A DNA stretch of 64,000 bases from Patescibacteria group bacterium (GTDB taxonomy: Bacteria; Patescibacteriota; CPR2; UBA1875; CAIMLA01), in assembly GCA_041738615.1 (NCBI GenBank), contig JBGSPL010000004.1:1203-65202 (forward strand), written 5' to 3'. The position numbers and the translations under genes are program-made. Within the stretch, counting starts at the first letter, position 1. Every line of letters starts with the position of its first letter. Of the stretch, positions 19,768-33,668 are shown in pieces. The notes under the pieces are model-generated. The model searched no databases and was not told the DNA's origin. It saw only the letters and a list, made by a program, of their open reading frames with translations.

Positions 19768-21093
19768 TTAGTTTAGTTGAACAGAAACAACCGAAACAAT
19801 GTTTGCAACGGCGCTCTCAGCTGCCTCTTTCGTTGCTGCTTCGGCCATGACACGGACTAAGGGCTCTGTTCCGGATGATCGTACTAGTACGCGGCCCAGA
19901 CCAGCCAGCGTCGCTGTTTCTTGCTTGATCGCATCTTGAACGGAGGCATTCATAGCAAGCTCCGATTTCTTGGTGGCGGGTACATTTATAAGAACTTGTG
20001 GATATTTGCACATCACTTTGGCGAGCTCACTCATTGTATTACCGCTTTCTTTGAGCGCAGCGGCAAGCTGGAGGGCGGTGACTAGCCCATCACCAGTAGT
20101 GTTGTGTTCGAGAAAGACAATGTGCCCAGATTGTTCGCCTCCGAAAGTGGCTCCTGTTTCTCTCATCTGCTCTAGTACGTAACGGTCACCAACATCTGTT
20201 TTTACCAAGTGTATACCTAGTTCTTCCATCGCCTTGTCGAGTCCCATGTTTGCCATAACGGTAGTAACAACTGTATTGTTCGCCAGTTTCCCCTGTGTTT
20301 TTAGGTGCCCTGCGCAGATTGCCATGATGTAGTCACCATCGATGGCTTCTCCATTTTCATCCACCGCAAGCACCCGGTCTGCGTCCCCGTCGTGTGCAAA
20401 ACCGAAGTCAGCGTGGGTATTAAGTACCAGCTCAGAAATAGGCCCTAGATTAGTCGAGCCGCAAGCCACGTTGATGTCGTCTCCAGCGTAACTATCGTTG
20501 ATAACGTGTACTTGGACCCCCAGGGCCCTAAAAGCCTCTGGAGTAGCTCTATATGCTGCGCCATGGCCACAATCTATCGCGACTGTAAGGCCAGAAAGTT
20601 CACCCGCGACTGTTGAGACGGCGTGAGTGATGTATCGGTCAGTCGCATCAGCCATATGAGAAGCTGCACGTGAGGTAGTGGGAATGCTGTCTGAATCTAG
20701 ATCTAGGACGTATTTCTCGATTTCTGATTCCTCTGCGTCCGAGAGTTTACCGCCAGCCGCATTGAATAGCTTGATGCCGTTATACTCTGGTGGGTTGTGC
20801 GAAGCGGAGATAACGATACCGCCAGTAGCCCCGGTTTCCTTTATCAGGAAAGCCACCGCGGGAGTCGGAATTACCCCGCAAATTACCGCTTCTACCCCCT
20901 CGCTGTGTAGGCCGGAAATGACTGCATTTTCCAGGTCTTCGCCGCTTCCTCTGGTGTCGCGTCCGATAACGACAGTTCCCTTACCCTTAGCAAGGAATTT
21001 GGCTGCCGCTGCCCCAAGCTTAGTCGTTAGCTCTAGTGTGAGCTCTTCGTAAGCAACACCACGAACGCCGTCTGTACCAAAAAGCTTACCCAT
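19768..21093 (-). CDS. glmM: Phosphoglucosamine mutase GlmM
   Basis: MGKLFGTDGVRG and the active-site loop SASHNPPEYNGIK are GlmM signatures. The start is trimmed to MGKLFG; that ATG overlaps the stop of the upstream Nudix gene (ATGGGTAA). Confidence 0.85.
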   Translation of the reverse strand: MGKLFGTDGVRGVAYEELTLELTTKLGAAAAKFLAKGKGTVVIGRDTRGSGEDLENAVISGLHSEGVEAVICGVIPTPAVAFLIKETGATGGIVISASHNPPEYNGIKLFNAAGGKLSDAEESEIEKYVLDLDSDSIPTTSRAASHMADATDRYITHAVSTVAGELSGLTVAIDCGHGAAYRATPEAFRALGVQVHVINDSYAGDDINVACGSTNLGPISELVLNTHADFGFAHDGDADRVLAVDENGEAIDGDYIMAICAGHLKTQGKLANNTVVTTVMANMGLDKAMEELGIHLVKTDVGDRYVLEQMRETGATFGGEQSGHIVFLEHNTTGDGLVTALQLAAALKESGNTMSELAKVMCKYPQVLINVPATKKSELAMNASVQDAIKQETATLAGLGRVLVRSSGTEPLVRVMAEAATKEAAESAVANIVSVVSVQLN

Positions 21094-21598
21094 GTTTCTT
21101 TTCCAAAAGTTCACGCGCTTTTTCAATGAAGAGCAGGTCTCTCTCGTGAATAAAGATGCTTCGTGGCCCAGTGGGGTGTTCATTCTCGATGGTATTTACG
21201 GCTTTTTCGAGCGGCATCCACTCGAGCGAGAAGTCCTCGGCGATTTCCTTATCTGAAAATTCTGGTCCGCAAACCTTCTTCGTAAGCTCGGCTAGGTAAC
21301 AATAGCTCAGTTGCAAAAACTCGAATTCATCGCGGTATTCAATGATGAGTCCGACTTCGTCTGTAACCTTGACTTCGCAGCCGGTCTCTTCCATTACCTC
21401 GCGTTCCAGGGCTTCCATGATAGACTCGCCCGGGTCGATGCCTCCTCCAGGCAGTTTGTGCATATGATATTTACCGACAAGAAGAAGAGCGATTTCGCCT
21501 TTGTCGTTTGTGACTACTGCTCTTGCCGCTCTTCGTATTTTGTATGATTGTCGCTTTTCTTCGTGGTTCCCGGGGTAGATTTCTTTGATTAGTTCCAT
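21086..21598 (-). CDS. NUDIX hydrolase
   Basis: It carries the Nudix box GGGIDPGESIMEALEREVMEETG. Confidence 0.8.
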   Translation of the reverse strand: MELIKEIYPGNHEEKRQSYKIRRAARAVVTNDKGEIALLLVGKYHMHKLPGGGIDPGESIMEALEREVMEETGCEVKVTDEVGLIIEYRDEFEFLQLSYCYLAELTKKVCGPEFSDKEIAEDFSLEWMPLEKAVNTIENEHPTGPRSIFIHERDLLFIEKARELLEKKHG

Positions 21599-21702: not shown

Positions 21703-22338
21703 TTGCAGAATCTAGATGCGTATACTTTTGACGATGGGGTGCGTTACTTGCTGGAAATTAGCGCAACACATTTAGTGGCCGACGAGAAACCATTCTTGTT
21801 GGCTGTTGGAGGTGGCGTTGGTTCGGGTAAAAGCTACTTAGCTAGTCGATTGAAAGAGTCTTTAAAAGATCAGGCGGCTCTTATCTCTCAAGATGACTAC
21901 TTCTTCGACAACGAAACCGTCAATCCAGGACGCGAGGCATTTTTCAACTGGGAAAGTCCAGAGACGCTAAATATTGAATTGCTAAACTCCCACATAAACA
22001 GCTTAATAGCAGGGGAGCCGATTGATAGACCGATATACTGTATGGAGACCAGCAGCTGTATGGGGACTACGAAGGTTTTTCCTGCCAAGATAATCATCCT
22101 AGAGGGTACTCACGTGTTGAATCCAAGGTTAATTAAGGCAGATGAGTTCAAAGTATATGTTGACGCATCGGAAAGAACTCGATTGCAAAGGAAGCTGGTC
22201 AGGGACGTGGTGGAGCGGAAAAAAGGTACTGAAGAGTTTGTGAGGGGTTATTATGAAGCGGTGATTAAAGATTCGCACAGACGCTTCGTGGAACCTACTA
22301 AGAATTTTGCCAGGGTACTTATACTTAACGAAGCCTGA
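21703..22338 (+). CDS. Uridine/cytidine kinase-like P-loop kinase (PRK/Udk family)
   Basis: VGGGVGSGKSYLASRL is the P-loop, followed by ISQDDYF. The overall pattern parallels Udk. Confidence 0.6.
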   Translation: MQNLDAYTFDDGVRYLLEISATHLVADEKPFLLAVGGGVGSGKSYLASRLKESLKDQAALISQDDYFFDNETVNPGREAFFNWESPETLNIELLNSHINSLIAGEPIDRPIYCMETSSCMGTTKVFPAKIIILEGTHVLNPRLIKADEFKVYVDASERTRLQRKLVRDVVERKKGTEEFVRGYYEAVIKDSHRRFVEPTKNFARVLILNEA

Positions 22339-22422: not shown

Positions 22423-22932
22423 CTACTGCAGCCAGTCGATCGTGTAGGTCGTGTTGACGACGATAGCAGTATCACCAGGGCGCTTGCTCATAAGAGCTTC
22501 TGCGAGCGGGGTCTCCTGCGCGAGAACCATGATGGAAACCGGTTCTGCGTCCGGATCGGCGGCGTATTCGATCGGCTTGCCCGCCTTTCCCGGAACGATG
22601 AAGACCAGAAGGTCCCTGTCGCTGCCGGTGCTTGCCAGGACCTTCACAAGTGAGTAGCACTGCACTGTCTCGTGTGGGACCTTGTCCCACCCCTCAGGCA
22701 TGAGAGACATCTCACCGAGAGCTGCCTGGAACTTCGCGGCAGTTTCACGAGCAGCCTTCGCCATGCTCTGTTGCTGGCTCCGGTTGGTGTCGCTTGCGGA
22801 CTCCATCTTGCTGGGATAGCCTGCGGCCTCCTGTTCGAAATAGCGGACCTGATCTTCTGTTTCGGCGACAATCTCTTTGACCGCATCGAGTGCAAGGTCA
22901 AAGATCGCCTTCTTGCTGTATGCCGAAGCCAT
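22423..22932 (-). CDS. GreA/GreB C-terminal-domain-like protein, GC-rich (about 58% GC)
   Basis: The C-terminal VSIMVLAQETPLAEALMSKRPGDTAIVV resembles the GreA FKBP-like domain. A strong AGGAGGG SD precedes it. The composition is anomalous for this genome. Confidence 0.45.
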   Translation of the reverse strand: MASAYSKKAIFDLALDAVKEIVAETEDQVRYFEQEAAGYPSKMESASDTNRSQQQSMAKAARETAAKFQAALGEMSLMPEGWDKVPHETVQCYSLVKVLASTGSDRDLLVFIVPGKAGKPIEYAADPDAEPVSIMVLAQETPLAEALMSKRPGDTAIVVNTTYTIDWLQ

Positions 22933-23112
22933 TTCCGAACCCTCCTGTCGGTTTGGCGTTGACTACATGACAATCAAGAACGATACGCATTATCGCACAT
23001 CTAAAGCCTTATGTCAAGGCTTCTACTTGTTCTTTTTTGTTCCTTTGTAAAGGTTTTTCGGTAAGATTATTATTTTGTAACATATCACGGCAACCAACTG
23101 GAAAGGGGTCTC

Positions 23113-23547
23113 ATGAAAAATTTCGATCTGCCGATAAAGGCGGAAGTGATACCGTACACGAATAAGGGTGGTGACTTCAGATTTCTACTACTGAAAAGAT
23201 GTCCCGAAGATGGCAGCTTCTGGCAACCGGTTACCGGCACACTCGAATCAGATGAATCACTTGTTTCTTGTATGTCCAGGGAAATGCAAGAAGAGGCGGG
23301 GATCTCAGAGAATGATATTTTCCAAATCACGGATTTGCTCCACGTTTTCCATTGGATGAAGAAAGGCGTATATATTACCGAATATGTTTTTGGCGCCGAA
23401 CTTACTAACGAAATTGACGTAAAGCTTAGTGACGAACATACAGATTACAAGTGGTGTTCATACGAAGAAGCGCTGGCCTCTTTGGGGAAAGCGGAAAACG
23501 TGGAATGCTACAAGATCTTTATGCAGAAAATGATGGGTTTACGATGA
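23113..23547 (+). CDS. NUDIX hydrolase
   Basis: It carries the Nudix box GTLESDESLVSCMSREMQEEAGI. Confidence 0.7.
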   Translation: MKNFDLPIKAEVIPYTNKGGDFRFLLLKRCPEDGSFWQPVTGTLESDESLVSCMSREMQEEAGISENDIFQITDLLHVFHWMKKGVYITEYVFGAELTNEIDVKLSDEHTDYKWCSYEEALASLGKAENVECYKIFMQKMMGLR

Positions 23548-25055
23548 ATACAATGATCATTGGGGTCGGGTATCACGCAAGGAGGATTTATCTGCCATAT
23601 CTGATGGAAAATGAAAGTAGGGGCAGTCTGGTCTGCGGTGTAGATATATATTCTCAAAAGGAGAAAATAGCGGAGTATCTGGACACGAGAGGCTATTCGT
23701 TGCCAATGTACTACACTGACGACTTGGAGCAGAACTCGCTTAGTCTGAGCCTGGATAAAATGCTCAAGGAACTTGTTTCAGATTATCATGTCGATAGCGT
23801 CATTATTTCAACAGAGCCGCTAATGCACCACAAGTACGCCAAGTGGGCCCTGGAGAACAATCTCAATGTTCTTATGGATAAACCCGTAACCAGCGAGGAA
23901 GGGGTCTCTGCTGATCTTGTAAAATCCAGAAAGATTGTGAGCGATTTTGACGAACTTTCTGAATTGTACCTACAAAAGAAAGAGAGAGGGCTCGTAGGCG
24001 CATTTTCCTTAATGTCGCAGAGGCGATTCCATCCGGCTTATACCTTAATGAAGAAGAAGCTAAAGGAAGTATTTGAAGCTACAAACTGTCCCGTGACTTC
24101 GATTCAGATATCCCATAGTGATGGGATGTGGAGAACTCCAACAGAGATTATTGAGATGGATTATCACCCATACAATCAGGGTTACGGGAAAATCTCTCAC
24201 TCCGGGTACCATAGCTTGGATATGTTGAATTGGCTCCAGGATTTTGCTGGGACTGGCGAAAAAGCGTATGACAGGGTGGAAGTTACTAGTAATTTTGTCC
24301 GGCCTGTAGATTTTTTGTCGCAGATTACTCTTTCGGATTACCGTCGGATATTTCCAGATTTTGATAAATATAACAAATATACAGAAGACGAGTTCTGTAA
24401 GGCGACTGAGAATTATGGCGAGATAGATGCTTTTTGCTCGATAGCCTTTAAAAAGGGTGAAAAGACGCTCTGTCTCGGAAGCTTGAATGCGATGCACAAC
24501 GGTTTTTCGCAACGAGGTTGGTTGGATTCTGAGGGCAGAGATCTCTATAAAGGAAATGGTAGAATACGCCAGGAATCATATTTTATCGAACAGGGGCCGT
24601 TTCAATCGATTTCATTTATATCTTACCAGTCCAAAGAAATTAATCCCGATAATAACCAGAGTGTCTATGCGTTTGGGGGTGAAAGGCATTTAGATATACA
24701 TGTATTCCGCAATAACGGAATCTATCCTCAGTGGAAGACCCATGAGGTTTTTAGTATCAAAGATATCTCGCAGGAATTTATGACAGGATATTCAAGAGGT
24801 CATCAGGAAGACGCTAGAATTGCTTGTATTGTAGACTTCTACGAATCCATCTCGGCGGGGCGCGATACACAATCTGATCTGCTAGATCATCATAAGGGCA
24901 CCTATCTATTGTCGGCTATTTACGAGTCTGAGATACTGAAACGGAGTGGAGGTAACCCAATGGTACAGGTAAATATCGCCGATAAAAAGGCTCAAGAAGT
25001 CGACTATGTATATGAGAAAACAGAGTCAGAATTTGCGACACCTGCCTTTGCCTAG
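23544..25055 (+). CDS. Gfo/Idh/MocA-family NAD(P)-dependent oxidoreductase with long C-terminal extension
   Basis: MIIGVGYHARRIYLPYL is the Rossmann N-terminus, followed by STEPLMHHKYAKWALENNLNVLMDKPV. The start is set at the MNTMII ATG, which overlaps the upstream stop (ATGA). Confidence 0.65.
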   Translation: MNTMIIGVGYHARRIYLPYLMENESRGSLVCGVDIYSQKEKIAEYLDTRGYSLPMYYTDDLEQNSLSLSLDKMLKELVSDYHVDSVIISTEPLMHHKYAKWALENNLNVLMDKPVTSEEGVSADLVKSRKIVSDFDELSELYLQKKERGLVGAFSLMSQRRFHPAYTLMKKKLKEVFEATNCPVTSIQISHSDGMWRTPTEIIEMDYHPYNQGYGKISHSGYHSLDMLNWLQDFAGTGEKAYDRVEVTSNFVRPVDFLSQITLSDYRRIFPDFDKYNKYTEDEFCKATENYGEIDAFCSIAFKKGEKTLCLGSLNAMHNGFSQRGWLDSEGRDLYKGNGRIRQESYFIEQGPFQSISFISYQSKEINPDNNQSVYAFGGERHLDIHVFRNNGIYPQWKTHEVFSIKDISQEFMTGYSRGHQEDARIACIVDFYESISAGRDTQSDLLDHHKGTYLLSAIYESEILKRSGGNPMVQVNIADKKAQEVDYVYEKTESEFATPAFA

Positions 25056-25158
25056 GCACAAAATATTCAAAGAATGTGAATAACAGGTAAATTCTTCAGA
25101 AATATTCCTTATGATACTTTTGCTTTAAGTAATAAACTCTGTCCATGCCAAGGTAATA

Positions 25159-26157
25159 ATGCTGAGGCAGCTCCTTGAAAGGGGGGAAGTAAAGGTGAAC
25201 GCAGCCAATGATTCGCTCAGGGTTCGTGTTACACCGTATTGCAACCTGAATTGTGACTTCTGTCACGAAGAAGGAGGCGATGCGTCTTGTCCGATTTCGC
25301 TCAGCCAGGTGGTGGAGATAACCAAGTTCGCACATGAGCATGGTTTCAACAAGTTCCACTTGACCGGCGGCGAACCAAGCTGTCATCCGGAGCTCGTTGG
25401 AATCGTCCGCATCATTACGGGTGCTGGATTCCCGTGTGGTATCACGACCAATGGGCAGTTTCGCTCTTCGCTCCTCGCGGAGCTGAGAGATGCCGGTGTG
25501 ACTAGCCTGAACTTCTCCATTCACACAGTAGACCCTGCCGCTTGGGCTCAGGTCCAGCAGCACTCTGATACCAGAAAGGCCGCAGCCCAGATTTCTCGGG
25601 CAATCGAGAATATGAAGCAGTCGGTCGCACTTGGAATCAGGACGAAGGTCAACATCGTGGTTGGTGAAGACGCAGCACAGGCCATCGGAGTTATTGAGGC
25701 CCTGCGTGGCTCTGGAGTTGAAATCCGACTCCTTAGCTTGCTTGGTTCAAATGACTCGCTTATCAACCTCGATTACCTCCTCGGACATTACGAGGCGGAA
25801 ATCGTCGATGAGATGCGAGTTCTCGACTCCAGCCAGTACCGTTCGACGTACAACAGCACCGCTGGCGTTCTCGTGGTGAAGAACATTCACCCGCATCGCG
25901 AACTTGCAGTCTGCAAGGGCTGCAAAGAGAACTGCCTCGAAGGCTTCTACGGCGTACGTCTGATACCGATGGAGGAAGACATTCTTGTCCGCCTTTGTAT
26001 CCACCGCACCTGTGAGAACACACTGATGTCTCTTTCGGCTTTCGCCGAAGGGCCTCAGCTCAGTGCACTCAAGTCACGCGGCGGACTCAATTGCAACCAC
26101 CAGGAGGTGAGTCATGAAGGCTACAACCTCACAGGAGCACGCATTTGTAGTGCTTGA
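25159..26157 (+). CDS. Radical SAM enzyme, MoaA-like (GTP 3',8-cyclase family fold)
   Basis: CNLNCDFC is the CX3CX2C cluster motif. LTGGEPS, ITTNG and LRDAGVTSLNFSIHTVDP parallel MoaA. A C-terminal CKGC...RLIPMEEDILVRLC resembles the MoaA auxiliary-cluster CxxC-x13-C motif. The gene is GC-rich. Confidence 0.8.
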   Translation: MLRQLLERGEVKVNAANDSLRVRVTPYCNLNCDFCHEEGGDASCPISLSQVVEITKFAHEHGFNKFHLTGGEPSCHPELVGIVRIITGAGFPCGITTNGQFRSSLLAELRDAGVTSLNFSIHTVDPAAWAQVQQHSDTRKAAAQISRAIENMKQSVALGIRTKVNIVVGEDAAQAIGVIEALRGSGVEIRLLSLLGSNDSLINLDYLLGHYEAEIVDEMRVLDSSQYRSTYNSTAGVLVVKNIHPHRELAVCKGCKENCLEGFYGVRLIPMEEDILVRLCIHRTCENTLMSLSAFAEGPQLSALKSRGGLNCNHQEVSHEGYNLTGARICSA

Positions 26158-26674
26158 GGGCATCGACATTCGAGGCAAGACAACAGTCAGTCGGGAGCTC
26201 GCAGAGGTCATTGGCGCAACTTTGGTCAAGACCCCTGTATCGCCGGTGGCCGAGTTCCGCAAGGTTTACGACTGCTGTGAGAACTACGACGCACGGTACC
26301 TGTACTACATGAGCTCCTTGGTTCTGGCCTCGGTCGAAATCACTGAGCTTCTGAAGTCTGGTCCCGTAGTCTGCGACAGGTGGCTGCATTCGGCCGTTCT
26401 CTATCACAAGGCTCTCGGTGTTGACACCTCTATGGTGAACATCGAAAGGCTCCACCTTGCCGTTCCGTCGCTCACGGTCTGTCTGGTCTGCGACGCATCG
26501 GTTGCAGCAGAGAGATTTCGCCAGCGTGGCGAAAACAAGGACGACAACATCGAGGACAACAAAGGTTTGCTGGCCACCGTCGACCGCTTGATGCAAGAAT
26601 CCATCCTCGCACAGGTCGACACGAGCTTCACGACGGCAAGTGAAGCGGCGCTGCAAATCGCAGCGATGCTCTAG
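26114..26674 (+). CDS. Thymidylate-kinase-family P-loop kinase (paralog 1)
   Basis: VVLEGIDIRGKTT is the P-loop, CDRW is a DRY-like motif, and the Arg-rich LID reads RFRQRGENKDD. A strong AGGAGG SD precedes it. It overlaps the 3' end of the radical SAM gene by 44 nt. Confidence 0.65.
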   Translation: MKATTSQEHAFVVLEGIDIRGKTTVSRELAEVIGATLVKTPVSPVAEFRKVYDCCENYDARYLYYMSSLVLASVEITELLKSGPVVCDRWLHSAVLYHKALGVDTSMVNIERLHLAVPSLTVCLVCDASVAAERFRQRGENKDDNIEDNKGLLATVDRLMQESILAQVDTSFTTASEAALQIAAML

Positions 26675-26716
26675 GGCTCTATCCGGAGAAGGACTCCGGC
26701 TGGAGCCCTTCTTCTT
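26674..26716 (+). terminator. Conserved two-tier hairpin + T-run downstream of the kinase (copy 1)
   Basis: GGGCUCU-AUCCGGAG-AAGG-ACUCCGGCU-GGAGCCC-UUCUUCUU is repeated with compensatory changes after kinase paralog 2. Confidence 0.6.
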
Positions 26717-26754
26717 AAATTTACAAAAGCCCTAATTTATGGTAACTTTTCAAT

Positions 26755-27267
26755 ATGAATTCAGAAATAGAAAAAAAGTATAAGATTAATACCTACGAAA
26801 AGGCAAAAGAAGAGATTATTGCTTTGGGGGCAAGTCATCTTTCGACCACCACTGACGTAGATGTATATTTTCTGGTTCCCCAGGCAATCCCAAACACACG
26901 TTATCTTCGTGTTAGAACAAAGGGCGGTAAGAATACTTTGGCTTATCACGAAGTAGTTGACGATCTAGAAACTAAGGAATGGGAAGTTGATGTTTCAGAC
27001 GCTGATGTAACCCATGATATCGTCGAAAAACTTGGTTTTGCTGAAGAGGTTGTGGTCAAGAAAACACGTGAGACTTATACCCTTGGAGATAGCGAAATAC
27101 TTGTCGATTGTATAGATGGCTTAGGGCACTTCGTAGAAATCGAGTCACCTGATGTAGTTTCTCTGGATAAAATTGCGGGAAAAATAACTCTTGGGGACCA
27201 GATTGTTGGCAAGGGGTATCCAGACTTAGTAAAAGAAAAGAGTGCGCATGAGACAGCCGTTAAATAG
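26755..27267 (+). CDS. CYTH-domain protein (triphosphate tunnel metalloenzyme / class IV adenylyl cyclase-like)
   Basis: The N-terminal EIEKKYKI (ExExK) and the later FVEIE acidic strand are CYTH hallmarks. The gene is AT-rich. Confidence 0.55.
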   Translation: MNSEIEKKYKINTYEKAKEEIIALGASHLSTTTDVDVYFLVPQAIPNTRYLRVRTKGGKNTLAYHEVVDDLETKEWEVDVSDADVTHDIVEKLGFAEEVVVKKTRETYTLGDSEILVDCIDGLGHFVEIESPDVVSLDKIAGKITLGDQIVGKGYPDLVKEKSAHETAVK

Positions 27268-28966
27268 TGACGTCCTAAGAGCAAAGAATAAGACTCTATA
27301 TCGGAGTTTTTTTTCTAATTACGACTTCGTTGTGTCGTCACCAGGAGGAGCTATTCTGGCCGGAACTTTTACGGATCATGTCGGGGGCCCTGGATTGCAC
27401 CAAAAAGTTCCTCTAAGAAACTACCTCGGTGTAAAGATAATCGAGAAGAACGATATCATCTTTGAAAACTACGGAACTTATGATTATTTTACTAATTCCT
27501 TTATTATTTTAGATGTAAAAAAAGAGAATATCGGCAAGTTGAGGCTTTTGAGGGAAATGATTTCGCTGAAGCTGGGGAGAGAGATAGGCCTTAGCGTCGG
27601 GATTCTGAATGAAATTCCAAGAAGGACCGGTCTAAATAACCCAGGCACAAATGCTGCCAATCTTACGGCTGCATATTTGTTACTCACAGAGCAAATCACA
27701 GCAAGGGATCTGGATGACTTTCAGAATCTGACAGTAGATTTTGATTCGAAAAAGCGGAATCTGATCAAAGCCACAGCGAAAAAATTCCATTCGGTTTGGC
27801 TCAATAGGAAGAGTGCTGGATTCGGAGTCCTATCTAGCTTAGTCAATCGATCAGACATTCTGGTTTATAACCCTGCTGCCGATTACCCTGTAGTTCCGAT
27901 AGCTGAAATATTTTCTCAAGAGAGCTTTCAAGAACTGCCTTTCGATGTAGTAATAATCGGCACCTCGGATAGATATGACATAGACTTTTCACTGCGAAAA
28001 TACGATGAAGTCGGTAATATCTTTTCGATTACTAATGAGGATGTAACCAAGTTTGATAAAGGATTCGGCCTTGATGAACCTGAGATTGATGACTTCCCAG
28101 CAGCGCTTTGTAAAAGTTATTTTGACGTTGCCAGTACAACGGGACTTGCCACAGTAATAGCGGTGGGCAAGTTTATCAAGGACCCGAGCATAGAAAATCA
28201 GAGAATTTGTTTGCAGTTGTTTAACAGTTCATACGACATGATCAATCTTTTCGGGCAGAATTTTTCTCGCAAAAATAAGGTGCATTCATTTGTGAAGAAA
28301 TACTATTACGAGGTTCTTTCCGATATGCCGTTTGCAATCACTACTGGTATTACGAACAACCTCGCATTAGTCACACCAAAGGAGTCCTCGAGGCAAGACC
28401 TCTCAGCACTCGTGGGCTATCTAGAGAGAAAGCTAGGTTTTGATATCTCCTATCCATATATTTCATGGATAGACGACTCGGACAACAAGGGAGCGGTTGT
28501 GGAGAAATGGGATGATCAGGGGATCCAAGCTGCTTACATCCAAAGGAATTGCCTGAACCTTTACAGTGTTCATACTATGGACGTGATACCTATGGTTACG
28601 GCCATAGACAACCGGGAGGGTCTCGAAAAAACATACGACATCCTTTTTGACGAAGACGATAAAAAGATATTCATCAACGGGAAGAAAGTAACATCGAAGG
28701 AATTACCAACAGTGGCGGCGACACTCAGTCTGTTTAATCTGCTAACTCAGACTGAGGACTTTGAGATATCGTCAGAAAAGTTGCCGGACCAATCATATTT
28801 CCAAGACAGAAACGAGCTCCAGAGTAAAATCGTAAGCCCGCTAAGAATTTATGTAGAAAAAGAACTAAACAAACACATCAACTTGAAGATAAGCGGAACG
28901 CTTTCTGAATATAAAGTGACACTATTTCCTTCTGATATTTCAGTCGGAGTTATCAGACGTTGCTAG
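27242..28966 (+). CDS. Large GHMP-kinase-like protein (N-terminal GHMP-like domain with degenerate P-loop + unknown C-terminal half)
   Basis: SSPGGAILAGTFTDHVGGPG resembles GHMP motif 1 (PGRVNLIGEHTDY). GLNNPGTNAANLTAAY is a degenerate version of motif 2, and KSAGFGVLSSLV of motif 3. The protein is 574 aa and overlaps the CYTH gene. Confidence 0.35.
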   Translation: MRMRQPLNSDVLRAKNKTLYRSFFSNYDFVVSSPGGAILAGTFTDHVGGPGLHQKVPLRNYLGVKIIEKNDIIFENYGTYDYFTNSFIILDVKKENIGKLRLLREMISLKLGREIGLSVGILNEIPRRTGLNNPGTNAANLTAAYLLLTEQITARDLDDFQNLTVDFDSKKRNLIKATAKKFHSVWLNRKSAGFGVLSSLVNRSDILVYNPAADYPVVPIAEIFSQESFQELPFDVVIIGTSDRYDIDFSLRKYDEVGNIFSITNEDVTKFDKGFGLDEPEIDDFPAALCKSYFDVASTTGLATVIAVGKFIKDPSIENQRICLQLFNSSYDMINLFGQNFSRKNKVHSFVKKYYYEVLSDMPFAITTGITNNLALVTPKESSRQDLSALVGYLERKLGFDISYPYISWIDDSDNKGAVVEKWDDQGIQAAYIQRNCLNLYSVHTMDVIPMVTAIDNREGLEKTYDILFDEDDKKIFINGKKVTSKELPTVAATLSLFNLLTQTEDFEISSEKLPDQSYFQDRNELQSKIVSPLRIYVEKELNKHINLKISGTLSEYKVTLFPSDISVGVIRRC

Positions 28967-28993
28967 CCCCATAACAGGCTTATCCGTAATAGA

Positions 28994-29020
28994 AAAGAAG
29001 GCTTCGAAGCCTTCTTTTCT
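28994..29020 (+). terminator. Rho-independent terminator after the CYTH/GHMP-like unit
   Basis: GAAGGCTTC-GAAGCCTTC is a perfect palindrome followed by TTTTCT. Confidence 0.65.
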
Positions 29021-29167
29021 ATTCAGTTATATTCCTTACTAAAGGCAATAATTAAACATTAACATTACGATAAGCAGAAGCAATCCGGCCAATGCTGTTC
29101 CTTGAAAGGGATTTCAGGTAATCGGTGCGATAAACACGATACCACGACCATCAACTGGAGGTGCGAA

Positions 29168-29722
29168 ATGTACGAGAACACATTGTTTCCGTTCGTAGTA
29201 CTCGAGTCGATTGATGGTTGTGGAAAGACTTCCATCAGCCATAATCTTGCAAGCATCTTGGGGGCCACTCTGGTAAAGTCTCCAGTAGAGCCCCTCGATG
29301 CCTTTCGTAAGGTCTACGATGACTGTGGCAACTACACGGCACGGTATTTGTACTACCTGAGCACTCAGGTTGTTTCATCAGCGCGTATTGCAGAGCTGCG
29401 AAAGAGCGGCCCTGTAGTATGTGACCGTTACCTGCCATCGACTGTACTATATCACCGGGCATTCGGTGTCGACACCTCGGTGGTTGATACCGATAAGCTC
29501 GGGCTCGAAATCCCTTCACTTATGGTCTGCCTTACCTGCCGTGAGGATATCCGTTGGGAACGGATTTGTTCTCGGGGCGAGGATAAGGATGACCATATCG
29601 AGGACAACCTGGCCCTGCTTGCAAAAGTAGATAAGATGATGAGGCTCGAAATCCCTCTTCACGTCGACACAAGCTTTACAACACCTCGCGAGGCTGCGTT
29701 GCAGATTGCTGCCATGCTCTAG
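29168..29722 (+). CDS. Thymidylate-kinase-family P-loop kinase (paralog 2, about 60% identical to paralog 1)
   Basis: It has VVLESIDGCGKTS, CDRY, an LID ending RGEDKDDHIED, and the same C-terminal EAALQIAAML as paralog 1. The start is trimmed to MYENT, which has a GGAGGTG SD. Confidence 0.65.
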   Translation: MYENTLFPFVVLESIDGCGKTSISHNLASILGATLVKSPVEPLDAFRKVYDDCGNYTARYLYYLSTQVVSSARIAELRKSGPVVCDRYLPSTVLYHRAFGVDTSVVDTDKLGLEIPSLMVCLTCREDIRWERICSRGEDKDDHIEDNLALLAKVDKMMRLEIPLHVDTSFTTPREAALQIAAML

Positions 29723-29761
29723 GGCTCTGATGGAGAAGGACTCCATCGGAGCCCTTCTTCT
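29722..29761 (+). terminator. Conserved two-tier hairpin + T-run downstream of the kinase (copy 2)
   Basis: GGGCUCU-GAUGGAG-AAGG-ACUCCAUC-GGAGCCC-UUCUUCU differs from copy 1 only by compensatory changes in the inner stem. Confidence 0.6.
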
Positions 29762-29840
29762 AGTTAAACTGATGCAGAAAGGGCGGATTTACGCTATAAT
29801 ACCGTCCAGTGACTGCACAGTTGCAGAAATAAAGGATAAT

Positions 29841-31430
29841 ATGATCAGCGTAAAGAATCTGACCTACACGGTCAGTACTAGAAATATACTAGACGATATC
29901 ACTCTCACGATTGCCGATGGCGACAGGGTGGCTATTGTCGGTCCCAATGGTGCCGGCAAGAGCACCTTCCTCAAGGTAGTGCTGGGCAAGCTAGAGCCTA
30001 GTGAGGGCAAGATATTTGTCTCCGGAGGCACTGGAGAGGTGGGCTATATGCCGCAGCACCTTGCAGATCTCGGCGAACTGCCAGAGATTAGCGTACTTAA
30101 CTTTATGCTCTCTGGACGCAAGCTAGATACGCTGATGGTTACGATTGAAGCGAAGCTCGCAGAAATGAATCAGCCAGGACTCCCCGAGGACGAGTCAATG
30201 CGACTCGCACACGAATACTCTGAGGCCTTCGAGCAGTTTATGGCCGGTGGAGGTTATGATGCCGAGGGAGAGTTACTCGAAGTGCTCTTGGGTATGGGGC
30301 TCTCTGGGCTGGATCTCGATCAGGACATCAATACTCTCAGCGGGGGTCAGAAGACGAAGCTTGCCTTTGCTCGAGTCCTTTTTGCTCGTTCGCGGGTGAT
30401 GATACTCGACGAGCCGACTAACCACCTCGACGAGAAGACTATCGATTTCGTTGTCGATTACCTACTGAATTTCGACGGAACGCTCATCATGGTCTCACAT
30501 GTCCCAAGCATTCTTGATCAGTTGGTAACGAAGATTATCTCTCTTGACGGTCGGGGAGGCGCGGTGATCTACAGAGGGAACTTCACCGAATTTCAAAAGA
30601 AAAAGAGCCAGCGTGATACTGATATGGCCAAGCTGCGTCATGAGCAGGAGAAAGAAGAAGAGAAACTGATCGCATTTATCGATCGTTGGCGGAGTCAAAA
30701 GCCCAAGCAGGTCCATGACAGGGAGCGTAAGCTCGAGAAGCTACGCAGTGATATGGTGGACGCCCCAATCGTTCAAGCTCAGATATCGGTGAAGTTTCCT
30801 ATTACGGTCGAGCCAGTACAGAAGGTTCTTACGGCTCGTGGTATCGCGAAGTCATACGGCAATAAGCGTGTTCTTCATGATGTGGTTCTGGATTTTCAGC
30901 GAGGGGAACGCGTGGCTATCATGGGACCGAATGGTGCTGGCAAAAGTACACTTATGAAAATAATCGCTGGGCGGCTCCCGCAAGACGAAGGAACAGTAGA
31001 TTTCGGTGATCGAGTAGATCTGGGGTATTACGCACAAGAGCACGAATCATTGACCCTTACGAGTACCGTTCTGGATGAAATGCTCGGCGTGCCGCAGATG
31101 ACTCAGGCCCGAGGACGTTCTATCTTGGCGCATTTTCTTTTCCAGGGCGACAGGGTTGCTACCAAAGTCGGGTCCCTTAGTCTCGGCGAACGCAGTAGGC
31201 TGGCTATGGCCAAGCTCGTTGCCTCCGGGCACAACTTGTTGTTGCTCGACGAGCCGACAAACCACTTAGATGTCTTCGCGCGAGATCAAGTAAAGACGGC
31301 CCTCGCAAATTATGAGGGAACTGTGCTTATTATCTCTCATGACCGCGATTTTGTAGAAGGAATAGGGGTAGATAAGATTCTATTACTCCCAGAGAACAAA
31401 TTTGGTTTTGTCGGTCAGGTAGGCGAGTAG
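29841..31430 (+). CDS. ABC-F family ATPase (two ABC domains, no TMD; EttA/Uup-like)
   Basis: Two Walker A motifs (GPNGAGKST x2) and two LSGGQ-type signatures sit around a charged linker. The start is trimmed to MISVKNL, which has an AAAGGA SD. Confidence 0.85.
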   Translation: MISVKNLTYTVSTRNILDDITLTIADGDRVAIVGPNGAGKSTFLKVVLGKLEPSEGKIFVSGGTGEVGYMPQHLADLGELPEISVLNFMLSGRKLDTLMVTIEAKLAEMNQPGLPEDESMRLAHEYSEAFEQFMAGGGYDAEGELLEVLLGMGLSGLDLDQDINTLSGGQKTKLAFARVLFARSRVMILDEPTNHLDEKTIDFVVDYLLNFDGTLIMVSHVPSILDQLVTKIISLDGRGGAVIYRGNFTEFQKKKSQRDTDMAKLRHEQEKEEEKLIAFIDRWRSQKPKQVHDRERKLEKLRSDMVDAPIVQAQISVKFPITVEPVQKVLTARGIAKSYGNKRVLHDVVLDFQRGERVAIMGPNGAGKSTLMKIIAGRLPQDEGTVDFGDRVDLGYYAQEHESLTLTSTVLDEMLGVPQMTQARGRSILAHFLFQGDRVATKVGSLSLGERSRLAMAKLVASGHNLLLLDEPTNHLDVFARDQVKTALANYEGTVLIISHDRDFVEGIGVDKILLLPENKFGFVGQVGE

Positions 31431-32639: not shown

Positions 32640-33668
32640 TTATAGATATAGGTGGACGCTTTCTTTTTTGGTCTGAGCTAAATTACCATCTAGGACGACC
32701 TCGGTCATTTGTAGGTGGTTGCTCTTAGCAATTTTGTGACTATCAGCTGTGTCTGGTATCAACTCACCCAAAGCCTCTAGATGCAACTTATTTATGACAC
32801 CAAGTCTAGAATGCCTCGTTTTGTCGTCGGCACTGATTAGTATTACCTTTCCACCCAGATACTTATAGAGTCCTTTTCCGGGCGTTAGGCCGTAACCAAC
32901 CTCGACGAAGACGTTCGTGGTTCCCTTGGTCTTTGCAAGTTCTTCAGAGAGAAGCCTTAGCCACGGTTCGGCGATTACGTTAGTAATATCATTTGGTCTC
33001 TCGACTGCCATTTTGGTTAGATCTTGGTCCTTAAAGTGGGTTTTCAGCAGTTGTTTTAGCTCGCGGGATAGAGTGTCAGTTTCAATCCAAGAGTTTTTGG
33101 GGTCTTTATTGCAAAGTTCTCTTAGAAATGTAGATTTACCACTGCCGGGCTTACCCACAACAAGGAATAGATTGTTGATATCTAGAATCTTCTCGAGCAG
33201 CGCCGTCACGACCATTGGGCTTGCCATTTGCGAGAGGGCGATGAGGTCAAGCTTCTCAGCGGCTGCGCGAGTCCTGCTGGCGGAAATGGTTTCCATACCT
33301 TCGTTGGCTAGTAAGTACTGATAGTCTCGGATTCGGTAGTCGGCATAGTTTTGTTCCATTACAGCTTTTTCGTGCTTAAAATCGGCCTCGGAGCGCATAC
33401 CACGAACCATTATTAGCTCTTCGCCTTTGATTCCACCGGCGCTAAACTCGTCAAAAGTGAGAACTCGAACATCTTTTGGAAGGTCGTAACTCAACCAGAG
33501 TTTTTTGCATTCCTCCGGGGTAAATAAGTAGTCTTTACTGCCATCGCGGGAGCAGATGATGGTTGTAGAGCCGAGGATTTTACATGCTCGTTTTACGATC
33601 TCCAAATGCCCATATGTCGGCGGGCAAAAGGAACCCGGAAAAACTGCTTTAGGTTTAGCATTAACCAT
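32640..33668 (-). CDS. Fusion protein: CoaD-like cytidylyltransferase-fold domain + C-terminal P-loop kinase domain
   Basis: The N-terminal AVFPGSFCPPTYGHLEIVKRA parallels the CoaD HxGH motif. The C-terminus has VVGKPGSGKSTFLREL as Walker A. Confidence 0.55.
   Translation of the reverse strand: MVNAKPKAVFPGSFCPPTYGHLEIVKRACKILGSTTIICSRDGSKDYLFTPEECKKLWLSYDLPKDVRVLTFDEFSAGGIKGEELIMVRGMRSEADFKHEKAVMEQNYADYRIRDYQYLLANEGMETISASRTRAAAEKLDLIALSQMASPMVVTALLEKILDINNLFLVVGKPGSGKSTFLRELCNKDPKNSWIETDTLSRELKQLLKTHFKDQDLTKMAVERPNDITNVIAEPWLRLLSEELAKTKGTTNVFVEVGYGLTPGKGLYKYLGGKVILISADDKTRHSRLGVINKLHLEALGELIPDTADSHKIAKSNHLQMTEVVLDGNLAQTKKESVHLYL

Follow-up and report, generated by a model that had tools for sequence, protein, structure and literature searches.

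A 64,000-nucleotide stretch of DNA from a Patescibacteria group bacterium (hereafter, the window) encodes a rare and apparently undescribed gene set, the invariant core of which is a radical SAM (rSAM) enzyme and a CYTH triphosphate-tunnel metalloenzyme. In CPR genomes, this core is accompanied by an NMP kinase and a diverged Gre-family factor. We tentatively propose, with a probability of roughly 0.4, that the module makes and handles a modified nucleotide, that it acts in connection with RNA polymerase, and that it is most likely used in conflict. Gene content, conservation, fusions, folds, and motif conservation are observed, whereas what the enzymes act on, the reactions and their sequence, the target, and the biological role are inferred. 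The gene set suggests a new route to a modified nucleotide aimed at transcription.

Gene Content of the Locus

The original prediction described five genes in 25159-29775; all are real, lie where they were placed, and are ORFs of the plus strand. Its gene list and coordinates were nevertheless incomplete, since a conserved Gre-like partner at 22423-22932 on the minus strand was missed, and this changes the functional reading. The features of the locus are:

22423-22932, minus strand: diverged Gre-family factor with an RNA-polymerase secondary-channel factor fold, 169 aa, divergent to the cassette
22989-23073: promoter-like region, divergent, separating the NUDIX-led operon from the Gre-like gene
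23113-23547, plus strand: NUDIX hydrolase, 144 aa (Pfam NUDIX, 9.2e-15), accessory in the window genome
23544-25055, plus strand: GFO/IDH/MocA-type oxidoreductase, about 503 aa, ORF open from 23451 (PF01408, 4e-11)
25195-26157, plus strand: AbmM/MoaA-type rSAM enzyme with a C-terminal auxiliary-cluster motif, 320 aa, ORF open from 25159
26114-26674, plus strand: Tmk-family NMP kinase A, 186 aa, 44-nt overlap with the rSAM gene
26755-27267, plus strand: CYTH triphosphate-tunnel metalloenzyme, 170 aa (PF01928, 1e-14)
27248-28966, plus strand: GHMP-fold protein, 572 aa (ORF 27242-28966, 574 aa), motifs I-III altered, C-terminal domain of about 115 aa and unknown kind
28988-29023, plus strand: terminator-like hairpin with a 16-bp stem at the end of the rSAM-Tmk-CYTH-GHMP unit
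29168-29722, plus strand: Tmk-family NMP kinase B, about 184 aa, ORF open from 29102, a paralog specific to the window genome
29721-29755, plus strand: terminator-like hairpin after kinase B, 15-bp stem with 9 G-C pairs

The rSAM gene probably starts at the GTG at 25195, yielding the 320-aa protein P0001, and kinase B probably starts at the ATG at 29168. Candidate sigma-70-like sites, which are consensus matches only, lie at 23017-22989 (minus strand; 11/12 matches, extended TG) and 23045-23073 (plus strand).

Recurrence and Distribution of the Module

The order rSAM-Tmk-CYTH-(GHMP-like) was found again in several independent genome and metagenome contigs and therefore does not reflect chance. 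CYTH is encoded within 3.5 kb of the rSAM gene, usually directly downstream, in 55 of 58 genome loci, and loci with both genes span CPR phyla, many actinomycetes, one Shimazuella (Bacillota) genome, and one Melainabacteria MAG. The system had been pictured as two Tmk kinases bracketing a CYTH and GHMP cassette. That picture does not survive comparison: the conserved core is rSAM plus CYTH, with the second Tmk and the GHMP-like gene as lineage-specific additions. The two kinases, said to be about 60% identical, do share 62.5% identity over 176 aa, but their flanking arrangement is specific to the window genome.

The compositional mosaic that had been noted is real, with the rSAM and kinase A genes being GC-rich (GC 0.54-0.56, GC3 0.60-0.70) and the CYTH and GHMP-like genes AT-rich (GC 0.41, GC3 0.34-0.44). 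However, it is kept across three genomes whose proteins are just 57-70% identical and so does not point to recent modular assembly, as had been suggested.

The family is sparse and patchy (about 158 representatives at 50% identity among 1.84e9). Module position is stable within genera; the chromosomal position is conserved among six Nocardiopsis species and between two related Saccharibacteria, a pattern less typical of fast-turnover defence islands. In line with the original prediction, which did not recognise its combination of genes as a described system, no description of rSAM, CYTH, kinase, and Gre together was found in the searchable literature.

The Radical SAM Enzyme

The enzyme matches the Radical_SAM profile (3.7e-22). 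Both Cys motifs expected of it, CX3CX2C (C28, C32, C35) and the C-terminal C252-x2-C255-x3-C259-EGFYG-R267...R278-L-C280, vary little or not at all across the family. Among solved proteins, sequence profiles place it closest to MoaA (2.5e-26), AbmM (1.1e-24), and BlsE (2.5e-19), followed by viperins, all of which act on nucleotides or nucleosides. MoaA carries out the 3',8-cyclisation of GTP, and AbmM a sulfur-for-oxygen swap in the ribose ring. Equivalents of MoaA R17, K69, N124, K163, R192, and R268, which from papers on the MoaA-GTP structure we take to be triphosphate contacts, are conserved in the family. These relationships and retained positions bear out the expectation that the components are nucleotide-centred. 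MoaA and AbmM are the closest characterised relatives, and AbmM is nearer than the earlier MoaA- or viperin-type description implied. Other family members carry fusions to TIR, SorC sugar-binding, or TPR domains.

MoaA is the top NCBIfam match and also the top structural match, across all 320 residues (E 2e-14), as would be expected if the locus served ordinary molybdenum-cofactor (Moco) biosynthesis with the rSAM enzyme as MoaA. That explanation is already effectively refuted, in agreement with the original prediction. The enzyme scores 94-111 bits against MoaA equivalog cutoffs of 231-325, failing all of them, and lacks Mob_synth_C (PF06463), which all true MoaAs in the same search carry; its identification as MoaA was rejected on these grounds. 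The equivalent of R266 is lost, and an insert brings an extra Cys (Cys-x-Glu). The conserved partner is CYTH rather than MoaC, no Moco gene occurs among the annotated neighbours of the loci examined, and the actinomycete loci scanned show the rSAM-CYTH context only. Actinomycetes usually carry a bona fide MoaA as well, and the rSAM enzyme would thus be an additional paralog there.

Kinases and Triphosphate-Directed Partners

Kinase A matches PF02223 (Thymidylate_kin, 1.4e-13), falls below the TIGR00041 cutoff (53 versus 83 bits), and matches the PADLOC profiles PDC-M51B (9.5e-27) and VakA (2.2e-13). Its orthologs directly follow the rSAM gene in L003, L005, L009, L011, and L069. Kinase B matches PF02223 (8.2e-10) and PDC-M51B (7.4e-24), and its position in the syntenic genome L011 holds a second CYTH gene on the minus strand. 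The NMP kinase partner is subject to non-orthologous displacement, with Tmk-family members in the window clade, L069, and L073 and adenylate-kinase-family members in L015, L017, L025, L047, L062, and L070. The suggested viperin-type pairing is upheld in that kinases recur as partners and resemble viperin-associated kinases (PADLOC VakA 2e-13, PDC-M51B 1e-27).

The tunnel residues of CYTH (ExExK, RxR, ExE, R, D, ExE) are all conserved in 55-56 of 56 rSAM-linked CYTH proteins. NTP-pyrophosphatase partners are of three folds, namely CYTH, NUDIX, and MazG-like: NUDIX genes adjoin rSAM-CYTH in 18 loci, and a MazG-like gene adjoins the module in L074. The window NUDIX protein scores 70 bits against a NudB-like (NF006961) cutoff of 103, and its gene is absent from the matching position in L011. 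No oxidoreductase homolog occurs in any related locus, and this gene is not a conserved part of the module. The GHMP-fold protein, a lineage-specific accessory, would bind a ligand, serve in regulation, or act as an unusual phosphotransferase.

The window CYTH exceeds the NCBIfam cutoff for class IV adenylate cyclases (TIGR00318, cyaB; 71.3 versus 57.95). A cyclase role for CYTH is equally possible and would favour a signalling function, which on balance we consider unlikely. The rSAM enzyme and a class IV-type cyclase would then make an unusual or cyclic nucleotide messenger that NUDIX degrades and that is read by the Gre-like factor in CPR, acting on RNA polymerase as DksA does with ppGpp, and by HTH-TPR or Crp-type regulators elsewhere. 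Consistent with such regulators, a divergent HTH-TPR (NsdA-family) gene occurs in 17 loci alongside the 18 with NUDIX, the L070 module is flanked by a Crp-type cNMP-binding regulator and a response regulator, and the TPR and SorC fusions of rSAM (the latter sugar-phosphate-binding) and the stable position of the module would also fit. MoaC forms a cyclic phosphate after MoaA, which provides a mechanistic precedent. However, TIGR00318 takes in many CYTH proteins of unproven cyclase activity, and the closest solved relatives are archaeal, comprising the uncharacterised 2dc4 and 1yem as well as Saci_0718, which its database entry names simply as a triphosphate tunnel metalloenzyme. The Crp neighbour occurs in one locus only, and TIR, SIR2, and MazG links in a rare, patchy family are easier to reconcile with conflict than with housekeeping signalling. 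If the signalling served defence, this reading and our main explanation would converge.

The Gre-Like Factor

A profile of 11 Gre-like orthologs matches Gfh1 (2etn, 3.7e-8, over full length), GreA (1grj, 1.4e-4), and Rnk (3bmb, 9e-4). The Pfam GreA_GreB C-terminal match is weak, and the Pfam N-terminal Gre domain gave no match. The protein has just three close relatives among 5.8e9 clusters; with the missing N-terminal match, this led us to reject its identification as an ordinary GreA.

The gene is adjacent to the module in 9/9 CPR genome loci, with an order and orientation that differ between loci, and a full-length Gre-like domain is fused to rSAM in P0086, P0185, and P0212. The contigs of the first two fusions were confirmed, one having been seen in 4 samples, whereas the third (L074) has an in-frame TAA close to its N-terminus. 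Our literature search found no report of a Gre factor fused to an enzyme.

This strict co-occurrence in CPR and the fusions could also mean that the rSAM enzyme is a protein maturase acting post-translationally on the Gre-like factor, perhaps at the conserved tip of its coiled coil, (A/R)M(Q/E)S-x-x-DT-x-(R/K), the nucleotide enzymes being incidental. Foldseek does match the RiPP maturases SuiB and SkfB (about 1e-10), but mainly over the core, whereas its full-length matches are MoaA and AbmM. Given also that 49 loci have CYTH without a Gre-like gene, that kinases, CYTH, NUDIX, and MazG are all nucleotide-directed, and that the MoaA phosphate-binding positions are conserved, we regard a maturase as improbable.

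Those 49 loci, of actinomycete type, lack both a Gre-like gene and a kinase in their vicinity. The link to RNA polymerase may therefore hold for CPR alone, or else the actinomycete version may operate in another way, relying on NUDIX and an HTH-TPR regulator.

Possible Links to Conflict

The suggestion that the system is possibly antiviral gains indirect support from other family members. P0164 joins TIR to rSAM (PADLOC TIR-TM, 3.6e-15), a SIR2-like gene follows the L073 module (Aga_SIR2, 8.6e-10), genes for an SLFN-type helicase, a MazG-like protein, and Fic flank L074, and L001 lies beside AbiEi and ParE genes. The matches of the window kinases to PDC-M51B and VakA also lean towards conflict. 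However, no recognised defence gene adjoins the window cassette, the nearest defence island starting about 15 kb away, and no relatives were found on IMG/VR viral contigs.

Alternatively, the module might be a small biosynthetic cluster of the thmABC or albomycin type that yields a secreted nucleoside-analogue antibiotic, such as a 4'-thionucleoside. Kinase and rSAM would build it, CYTH or NUDIX would dephosphorylate it for export or protect the producer, and the Gre-like factor would serve self-resistance only, by excising the analogue from the producer's transcripts. Gre factors promote removal of 3'-terminal nucleotides from backtracked transcripts, the rSAM enzyme has AbmM-type motifs, and the module is abundant in actinomycetes, classic producers of nucleoside antibiotics. 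Photorhabdus thmABC, which makes 4'-thiothymidine, offers a parallel in combining an rSAM enzyme, a nucleoside kinase, and a self-resistance NTPase (PMC12691670). However, ThmA is reported to have no significant homology to albomycin radical SAM enzymes, AbmM included (PMC12691670). Moreover, transporter, tailoring, and siderophore-type genes show no consistent linkage, there is little obvious reason to fuse a biosynthetic enzyme to a resistance factor, and TIR and SIR2 links are atypical of antibiotic clusters. We thus think it doubtful that the module is an antibiotic cluster.

Proposed Mechanism

CPR bacteria depend on nucleotide salvage. In the modified-nucleotide reading that we prefer, the Tmk-family kinases would convert a salvaged nucleoside monophosphate into its di- or triphosphate. 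The rSAM enzyme would hold this nucleotide through its MoaA-like phosphate-contacting residues and, using a 5'-deoxyadenosyl radical and a C-terminal auxiliary Fe-S cluster, alter its sugar or base as AbmM and MoaA do. CYTH would cleave or cyclise the product triphosphate, either maturing the product or keeping the producer's nucleotide pool clean. The Gre-family factor may bring the product together with RNA polymerase at the secondary (NTP-entry) channel, where it would deliver or potentiate the analogue or else excise it from stalled transcripts. The outcome would be antiviral or antibacterial conflict by way of a transcription-directed nucleotide analogue.

Comparison With Known Systems

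The module shares with prokaryotic viperins (pVip/VakA) the pairing of an rSAM enzyme acting on NTPs with an NMP kinase, and the rSAM core matches pVip models (4e-18). However, the alignment covers that core only, viperins lack the auxiliary cluster, and the enzyme scores 51 bits against a viperin equivalog cutoff of 180. To our knowledge, CYTH and Gre partners have not been described for pVips.

MoaA shares the two-cluster layout, the triphosphate-contacting positions, and, in part, the C-terminal GG, but the family differs in its EGFYG motif and Cys-containing insert and in its partners, CYTH in place of MoaC and other Moco proteins. The Gre-like protein resembles GreA/GreB, Gfh1, and Rnk (and, functionally, DksA), both as a neighbour and as a fused domain, and has a C-terminal SPLGxALLGKxxGD motif. 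It differs in a tip motif unlike the D41/E44 motif of GreA and in belonging to a tiny family co-distributed with rSAM.

With thmABC, compared by description only, the module shares a three-part logic of rSAM enzyme, nucleoside or nucleotide kinase, and producer-protecting NTP hydrolase, which gives its architecture a precedent, although the thmABC NTPase is not described as a CYTH protein and there is no Gre factor (PMC12691670). AbmM, the albomycin rSAM enzyme (PDB 8wm2), is the best or second-best solved relative of the window enzyme (phmmer 1.6e-13, profile 1.1e-24). It has in common with the family FCH(N/E)EG after CX3CX2C and a C-terminal C-x2-C-xn-C-x-E...L-R-L, and it acts at the nucleotide level in a pathway with a partner kinase, AbmG (PMC12691670). 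However, identity is low (about 25-30% over the N-terminal half), the albomycin context (PLP enzymes, siderophore peptide) is absent here, and AbmM has no reported CYTH or Gre partner. Its score against the family profile is 90 bits, where members exceed about 127 bits, and it is therefore a sister of the family rather than a member.

Gene content and organization of the cassette

An open reading frame (ORF) scan of the window confirmed the five forward-strand genes that the original prediction had described, and profile searches supported the family assignments (Radical_SAM, 3.7e-22; Thymidylate_kin, 1.4e-13 and 8.2e-10; CYTH, 1e-14). These genes, a Gre-like gene on the opposite strand, and signals recognized in the sequence are arranged as follows.

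22423-22932 (-): Gre-like gene, 169 aa, with a profile match to Gre factors
22989-23073: divergent promoter-like sites
25159-26157 (+): radical SAM (rSAM) ORF; homologs point to a GTG start at 25195 (320 aa, protein P0001)
26114-26674 (+): thymidylate kinase (Tmk)-like kinase A, PF02223
26755-27267 (+): CYTH gene, Pfam CYTH
27242-28966 (+): 574-aa GHMP-like protein; homologs point to a start at 27248 (572 aa, protein P0072)
28988-29023: terminator-like hairpin 3' of the GHMP-like gene
29102-29722 (+): Tmk-like kinase B; homologs point to an ATG start at 29168
29721-29755: terminator-like hairpin (15 bp, T-run) 3' of kinase B

The compositional mosaic that had been noted among these genes is real, with GC3 values of 0.53-0.72 for the Gre-like, rSAM, and Tmk genes and 0.27-0.44 for the CYTH and GHMP-like genes (window 22423-29722 and the related loci L011 and L012). 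The high-GC3 signature is common to the Gre-like, rSAM, and Tmk genes in all three genomes. This mosaic had been taken to suggest modular assembly; however, the three genomes keep the pattern although protein identity among them is no more than 57-70%, so that it does not reflect recent transfer.

The GC-rich rSAM and Tmk genes harbor long antisense ORFs (25096-25563 and 26129-26656, both on the reverse strand), and in a related public metagenome-assembled genome the gene caller took the wrong strand for both (locus L008, 7828-8730 and 8702-9340). Such calls make the rSAM and kinase invisible to annotation-based surveys. The notion that the two genes are missing from this syntenic genome, and therefore mark a variable island, was rejected since L008 does carry the rSAM (69% identity) and Tmk once the correct strand is read.

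Several flanking genes were also recorded. Just past the Gre-like gene are a uridine-kinase-family gene (PRK, 2e-19; 21703-22338, +), missing from that place in L008, and a second NUDIX gene (21086-21598, -). An upstream NUDIX gene and a GFO/IDH/MocA oxidoreductase were rejected as core parts because their conservation does not extend to the nearest relatives; NUDIX beside rSAM-CYTH nevertheless recurs in other loci. On the other side, an ABC-F (ribosomal-protection-like) ORF (29706-31430, +) is over-extended at its 5' end: the kinase B hairpin lies inside it, and thus its true start is probably near 29841. A 342-aa protein (32640-33668, -) combines a PPAT-like nucleotidyltransferase motif (GSFCPPTYGH, by eye) with a P-loop kinase domain (AAA_33) and represents another nucleotide-handling gene near the cassette. 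A T2SSE/MshEN-type secretion ATPase (1410-3179, +) fits the reports of type IV pilus machinery in Saccharibacteria.

Affiliation of the radical SAM enzyme

The best NCBIfam matches of the rSAM were MoaA models, all far below their equivalog cutoffs (TIGR02666, 94.1 bits versus 284; TIGR02668, 111.2 versus 325; NF001199, 93.8 versus 231), and the viperin equivalog NF038283 scored 51.2 bits versus a cutoff of 180, aligning residues 24-169 only. Matches to the PADLOC pVip models were likewise restricted to the core. Comparison with MoaA and viperin profiles, which had been proposed as a check, therefore places the enzyme in neither family. A Pfam search of the rSAM returned only PF04055 and did not detect Mob_synth_C (PF06463), a domain that is absent from family members P0001-P0010 and present in every MoaA match of the same search list.

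The rSAM carries a CX3CX2C motif and a C-terminal Cys triad, to which a fourth Cys with EGFYG has been added by insertion, and the first Arg of the guanine-binding RxR pair is replaced by Gly. Across the family, the signature reads CX3CX2C followed by a C-terminal C-x2-C-x3-C-EGFYG-R...R-L-C. In an alignment with MoaAs, the family conserves the equivalents of R17, K69, N124, K163, R192, and R268, lacks that of R266, and has acquired an insert containing an additional Cys-x-Glu; the roles of these residues we take to be those seen in MoaA-GTP structures.

The predicted structure of the rSAM (pLDDT 87) matched MoaA and AbmM over its full length, and BlsE, RiPP maturases, and viperins over the core only. 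Profile searches against solved structures gave equivalent matches to MoaA (2.5e-26) and AbmM (1.1e-24). AbmM, however, has in common with the rSAM an FCH(N/E)EG segment after the SAM cluster and a C-x2-C-x4-C-x-E...LRL segment near the C-terminus (alignment to 8wm2). A pattern search recovered the AbmM-type motif from 102 of 155 family representatives; inspected variants retain a looser form. Collectively, the sub-cutoff MoaA and viperin scores, the lack of Mob_synth_C, the full-length match to MoaA and AbmM, and the AbmM motifs indicate that the rSAM represents a new family within the MoaA/AbmM branch. About nine close relatives were found among 5.8 billion protein clusters, and an exhaustive profile search recovered 158 representatives (50% identity) at E ≤ 1e-30 among 1.84 billion.

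No MoaC or Moco genes were among the annotated neighbors in the window and related loci, where the genes recognized encode CYTH, kinase, NUDIX, and Gre-like proteins. Plain Moco synthesis, the reading closest to the MoaA matches, is effectively excluded by these neighbors together with the sub-cutoff scores and the missing PF06463, in agreement with what had been argued from the sequence. The characterized relatives that were recovered (MoaA, AbmM, and BlsE) act on nucleotides or nucleosides; AbmM is reported to swap the ribose ring oxygen for sulfur with its own Fe-S cluster as donor (PMC12691670; PMC9092360).

Distribution and variants of the rSAM-CYTH core

A scan of species-representative genomes, in which neighboring gene families were assigned by HMMs built from seeds, yielded 58 loci. 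In 55 of them, a CYTH gene lay no more than 3.5 kb from the rSAM, mostly directly downstream, and a deep clade at 24-31% identity comprised Nocardiopsis, Nocardia, Saccharothrix, Streptomyces, and other actinomycetes. The rSAM-CYTH pair is thus conserved across distant phyla. On contigs with close homologs, the order rSAM-Tmk-CYTH-(GHMP-like) is repeated. Actinomycete loci add NUDIX (18 loci) and a divergent NsdA-family HTH-TPR regulator (17 loci), and loci of candidate phyla radiation (CPR) bacteria add an NMP kinase and a small Gre-like protein. The cassette content given in the original prediction accordingly holds for the rSAM, Tmk, CYTH, and GHMP-like genes, which recur on other contigs, but it had left out the Gre-like partner of the CPR loci. 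Phage origin was rejected, as a search of IMG/VR recovered relatives of neither the rSAM nor the GHMP-like protein.

The module occurs in Saccharibacteria, elsewhere in the CPR, and in actinomycetes. Since cultivated Saccharibacteria are epibionts on actinomycetes, the module, being present in both, may bear on that interaction. The small size of the family (~158 representatives at 50% identity) and its cultivable members (Nocardiopsis, Nocardia, and Streptomyces) make experiments feasible.

Several variants carry additional domains: a TIR domain (P0164; PADLOC TIR-TM, 3.6e-15), TPR repeats (P0204), or a SorC-type sugar-phosphate-binding domain (P0090, in a locus with Gre-like, Tmk, and SIR2-like genes). 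One locus (L074) has MazG-like, SLFN-type helicase, and Fic genes on its flanks, and another (L001) adjoins AbiEi and ParE genes. PADLOC did not match the set to any described defense system; the only hits were to the kinases (candidate PDC-M51B and the viperin-associated kinase VakA) and the rSAM core (pVip), and the CYTH, GHMP-like, and Gre-like proteins had none. A literature search returned nothing relevant on CYTH in anti-phage roles or on PDC-M51.

In a further locus (L070, 3124-7480), a kinase, an rSAM-Gre fusion, and CYTH are adjoined by a response regulator and a Crp-type cNMP-binding transcription factor, together with NUDIX, three further P-loop kinases, and an ASCH-domain gene. An ASCH-domain gene is also located 3' of the GHMP-like gene in locus L003.

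Kinases, CYTH, and the GHMP-like protein

Kinases A and B are 62.5% identical to each other. Both exceed the PF02223 cutoff of 27 (51.4 and 39.1 bits, respectively) and fall below the TIGR00041 cutoff of 83.25 (53.3 and 40.9 bits), and we assign them by sequence to the Tmk fold. In the clade of the window, the NMP kinase is a member of the Tmk family, and in Paceibacteria and other Saccharibacteria its place is taken by one of the adenylate-kinase family, a switch among CPR loci that is a non-orthologous displacement. More than one fold is represented among the recurring kinase partners, and the same is true of the recurring NTP-pyrophosphatase partners.

The CYTH protein scored 55.2 bits against Pfam CYTH (gathering score 23.2) and 71.3 against TIGR00318 (the cyaB model, for class IV adenylate cyclases; cutoff 57.95). 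The tunnel residues (E4, E6, K8, RxR pair, ExE, R, D, and ExE) are kept in 55-56 of 56 rSAM-linked CYTHs. The nearest solved structures are those of uncharacterized CYTH proteins from archaea and of Saci_0718, which was deposited under the name triphosphate tunnel metalloenzyme. One rival explanation that assigns a central role to this enzyme is that the rSAM/CYTH module makes a signaling nucleotide. In a syntenic Saccharibacteria genome, a second, diverged CYTH occupies the kinase B position (L011 11814-12395, -; equivalent to L008 11602-12177).

The 574-aa protein adopts a GHMP fold, with GHMP matches alone in a Foldseek search of the PDB, and a Pfam search gave no match to the GHMP_kinases_N and _C models. 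Motif I resembles the galactokinase signature, whereas an invariant PRRxGLNNPGxNAAN stands in place of the canonical motif II (PxGSGLGSSAA), and TGITNN in place of motif III. A C-terminal domain of ~115 aa carries an invariant DRNELQSK and had no relatives in profile searches of PDB sequences or Pfam; its identification as an OmpR-type winged helix was rejected because neither search supported it. The protein is an accessory component that could serve as a ligand sensor or an atypical phosphotransferase.

A Gre-family partner

A Gre-like ortholog is encoded beside the rSAM in all nine CPR genome loci, with varying order and orientation. A profile of eleven orthologs matched Gfh1 residues 16-154 over its full length (3.7e-8), GreA (1.4e-4), and Rnk (9e-4) in the PDB, and homology to Gre factors spans the coiled coil and C-terminal domain; single sequences gave only sub-threshold Pfam matches to the C-terminal domain. 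The tip motifs, (A/R)M(Q/E)SxxDT or SSETWHDN, have conserved acidic residues and differ from GreA. Only three close relatives were present in a large database, and, at the level of the loci and protein clusters examined, this rarity argues against an ordinary housekeeping GreA.

In three family representatives, the rSAM and the Gre-family partner form a single protein that contains a complete Gre-like domain. In P0086, the fusion is followed by an overlapping Tmk gene, and in P0185 it lies between an ADK-like kinase and CYTH on a contig seen in four samples. The third, P0212 (L074 5947-7422), is interrupted close to its N-terminus by an in-frame TAA that immediately follows the CX3CX2C-HAEG segment, and may be a decaying gene or pseudogene or an assembly error; an alternative genetic code was rejected because UGA recoding does not explain a TAA stop. 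These associations would also fit a rival explanation in which the rSAM matures the Gre-like protein.

Proposed function and comparison with known systems

We propose that the kinases would supply an NDP or NTP, that the rSAM would remodel the nucleotide by AbmM- or MoaA-like chemistry, that CYTH would cleave or cyclize the triphosphate, and that the Gre-like factor would link the action of the product to RNA polymerase. More specifically, the Gre-family factor may dock the AbmM/MoaA-type rSAM, as a fusion or a partner, at the NTP-entry channel of RNA polymerase, such that the modified nucleotide is made or handed over there, a possibility to which we give roughly one chance in five. If true, this docking would be an unreported means of switching off or reprogramming transcription (in immunity, dormancy, or epibiont-host conflict), in which CYTH, NUDIX, or MazG would confine the spread of the analogue in the cell.

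A published precedent for an architecture of rSAM, kinase, and NTPase is the thmABC cluster (rSAM, kinase, and self-resistance NTPase), which makes 4'-thiothymidine (PMC12691670). By comparison with this cluster, the module could instead make a secreted nucleoside antibiotic, with the Gre-like factor conferring self-resistance.

The original prediction regarded the combination as undescribed, and this view stands within the literature that was searchable: a literature search identified no paper connecting radical SAM enzymes with Gre factors or with CYTH, and PADLOC has no model set for it. The same search found no precedent for a nucleotide-remodeling rSAM fused to a secondary-channel factor, an arrangement that would tie small-molecule nucleotide chemistry directly to transcription control. 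Nucleotide analogues are proven antiviral and antibiotic scaffolds. Alongside viperins and the AbmM/thionucleoside pathways, the module would be a third independent lineage of nucleotide-remodeling rSAM with dedicated kinases and might for that reason be the source of a new natural nucleotide analogue. Radical SAM enzymes that modify nucleotides and have kinases of their own are already known, and the fusion to Gre is the element that could be categorically new if the link to RNA polymerase is confirmed.
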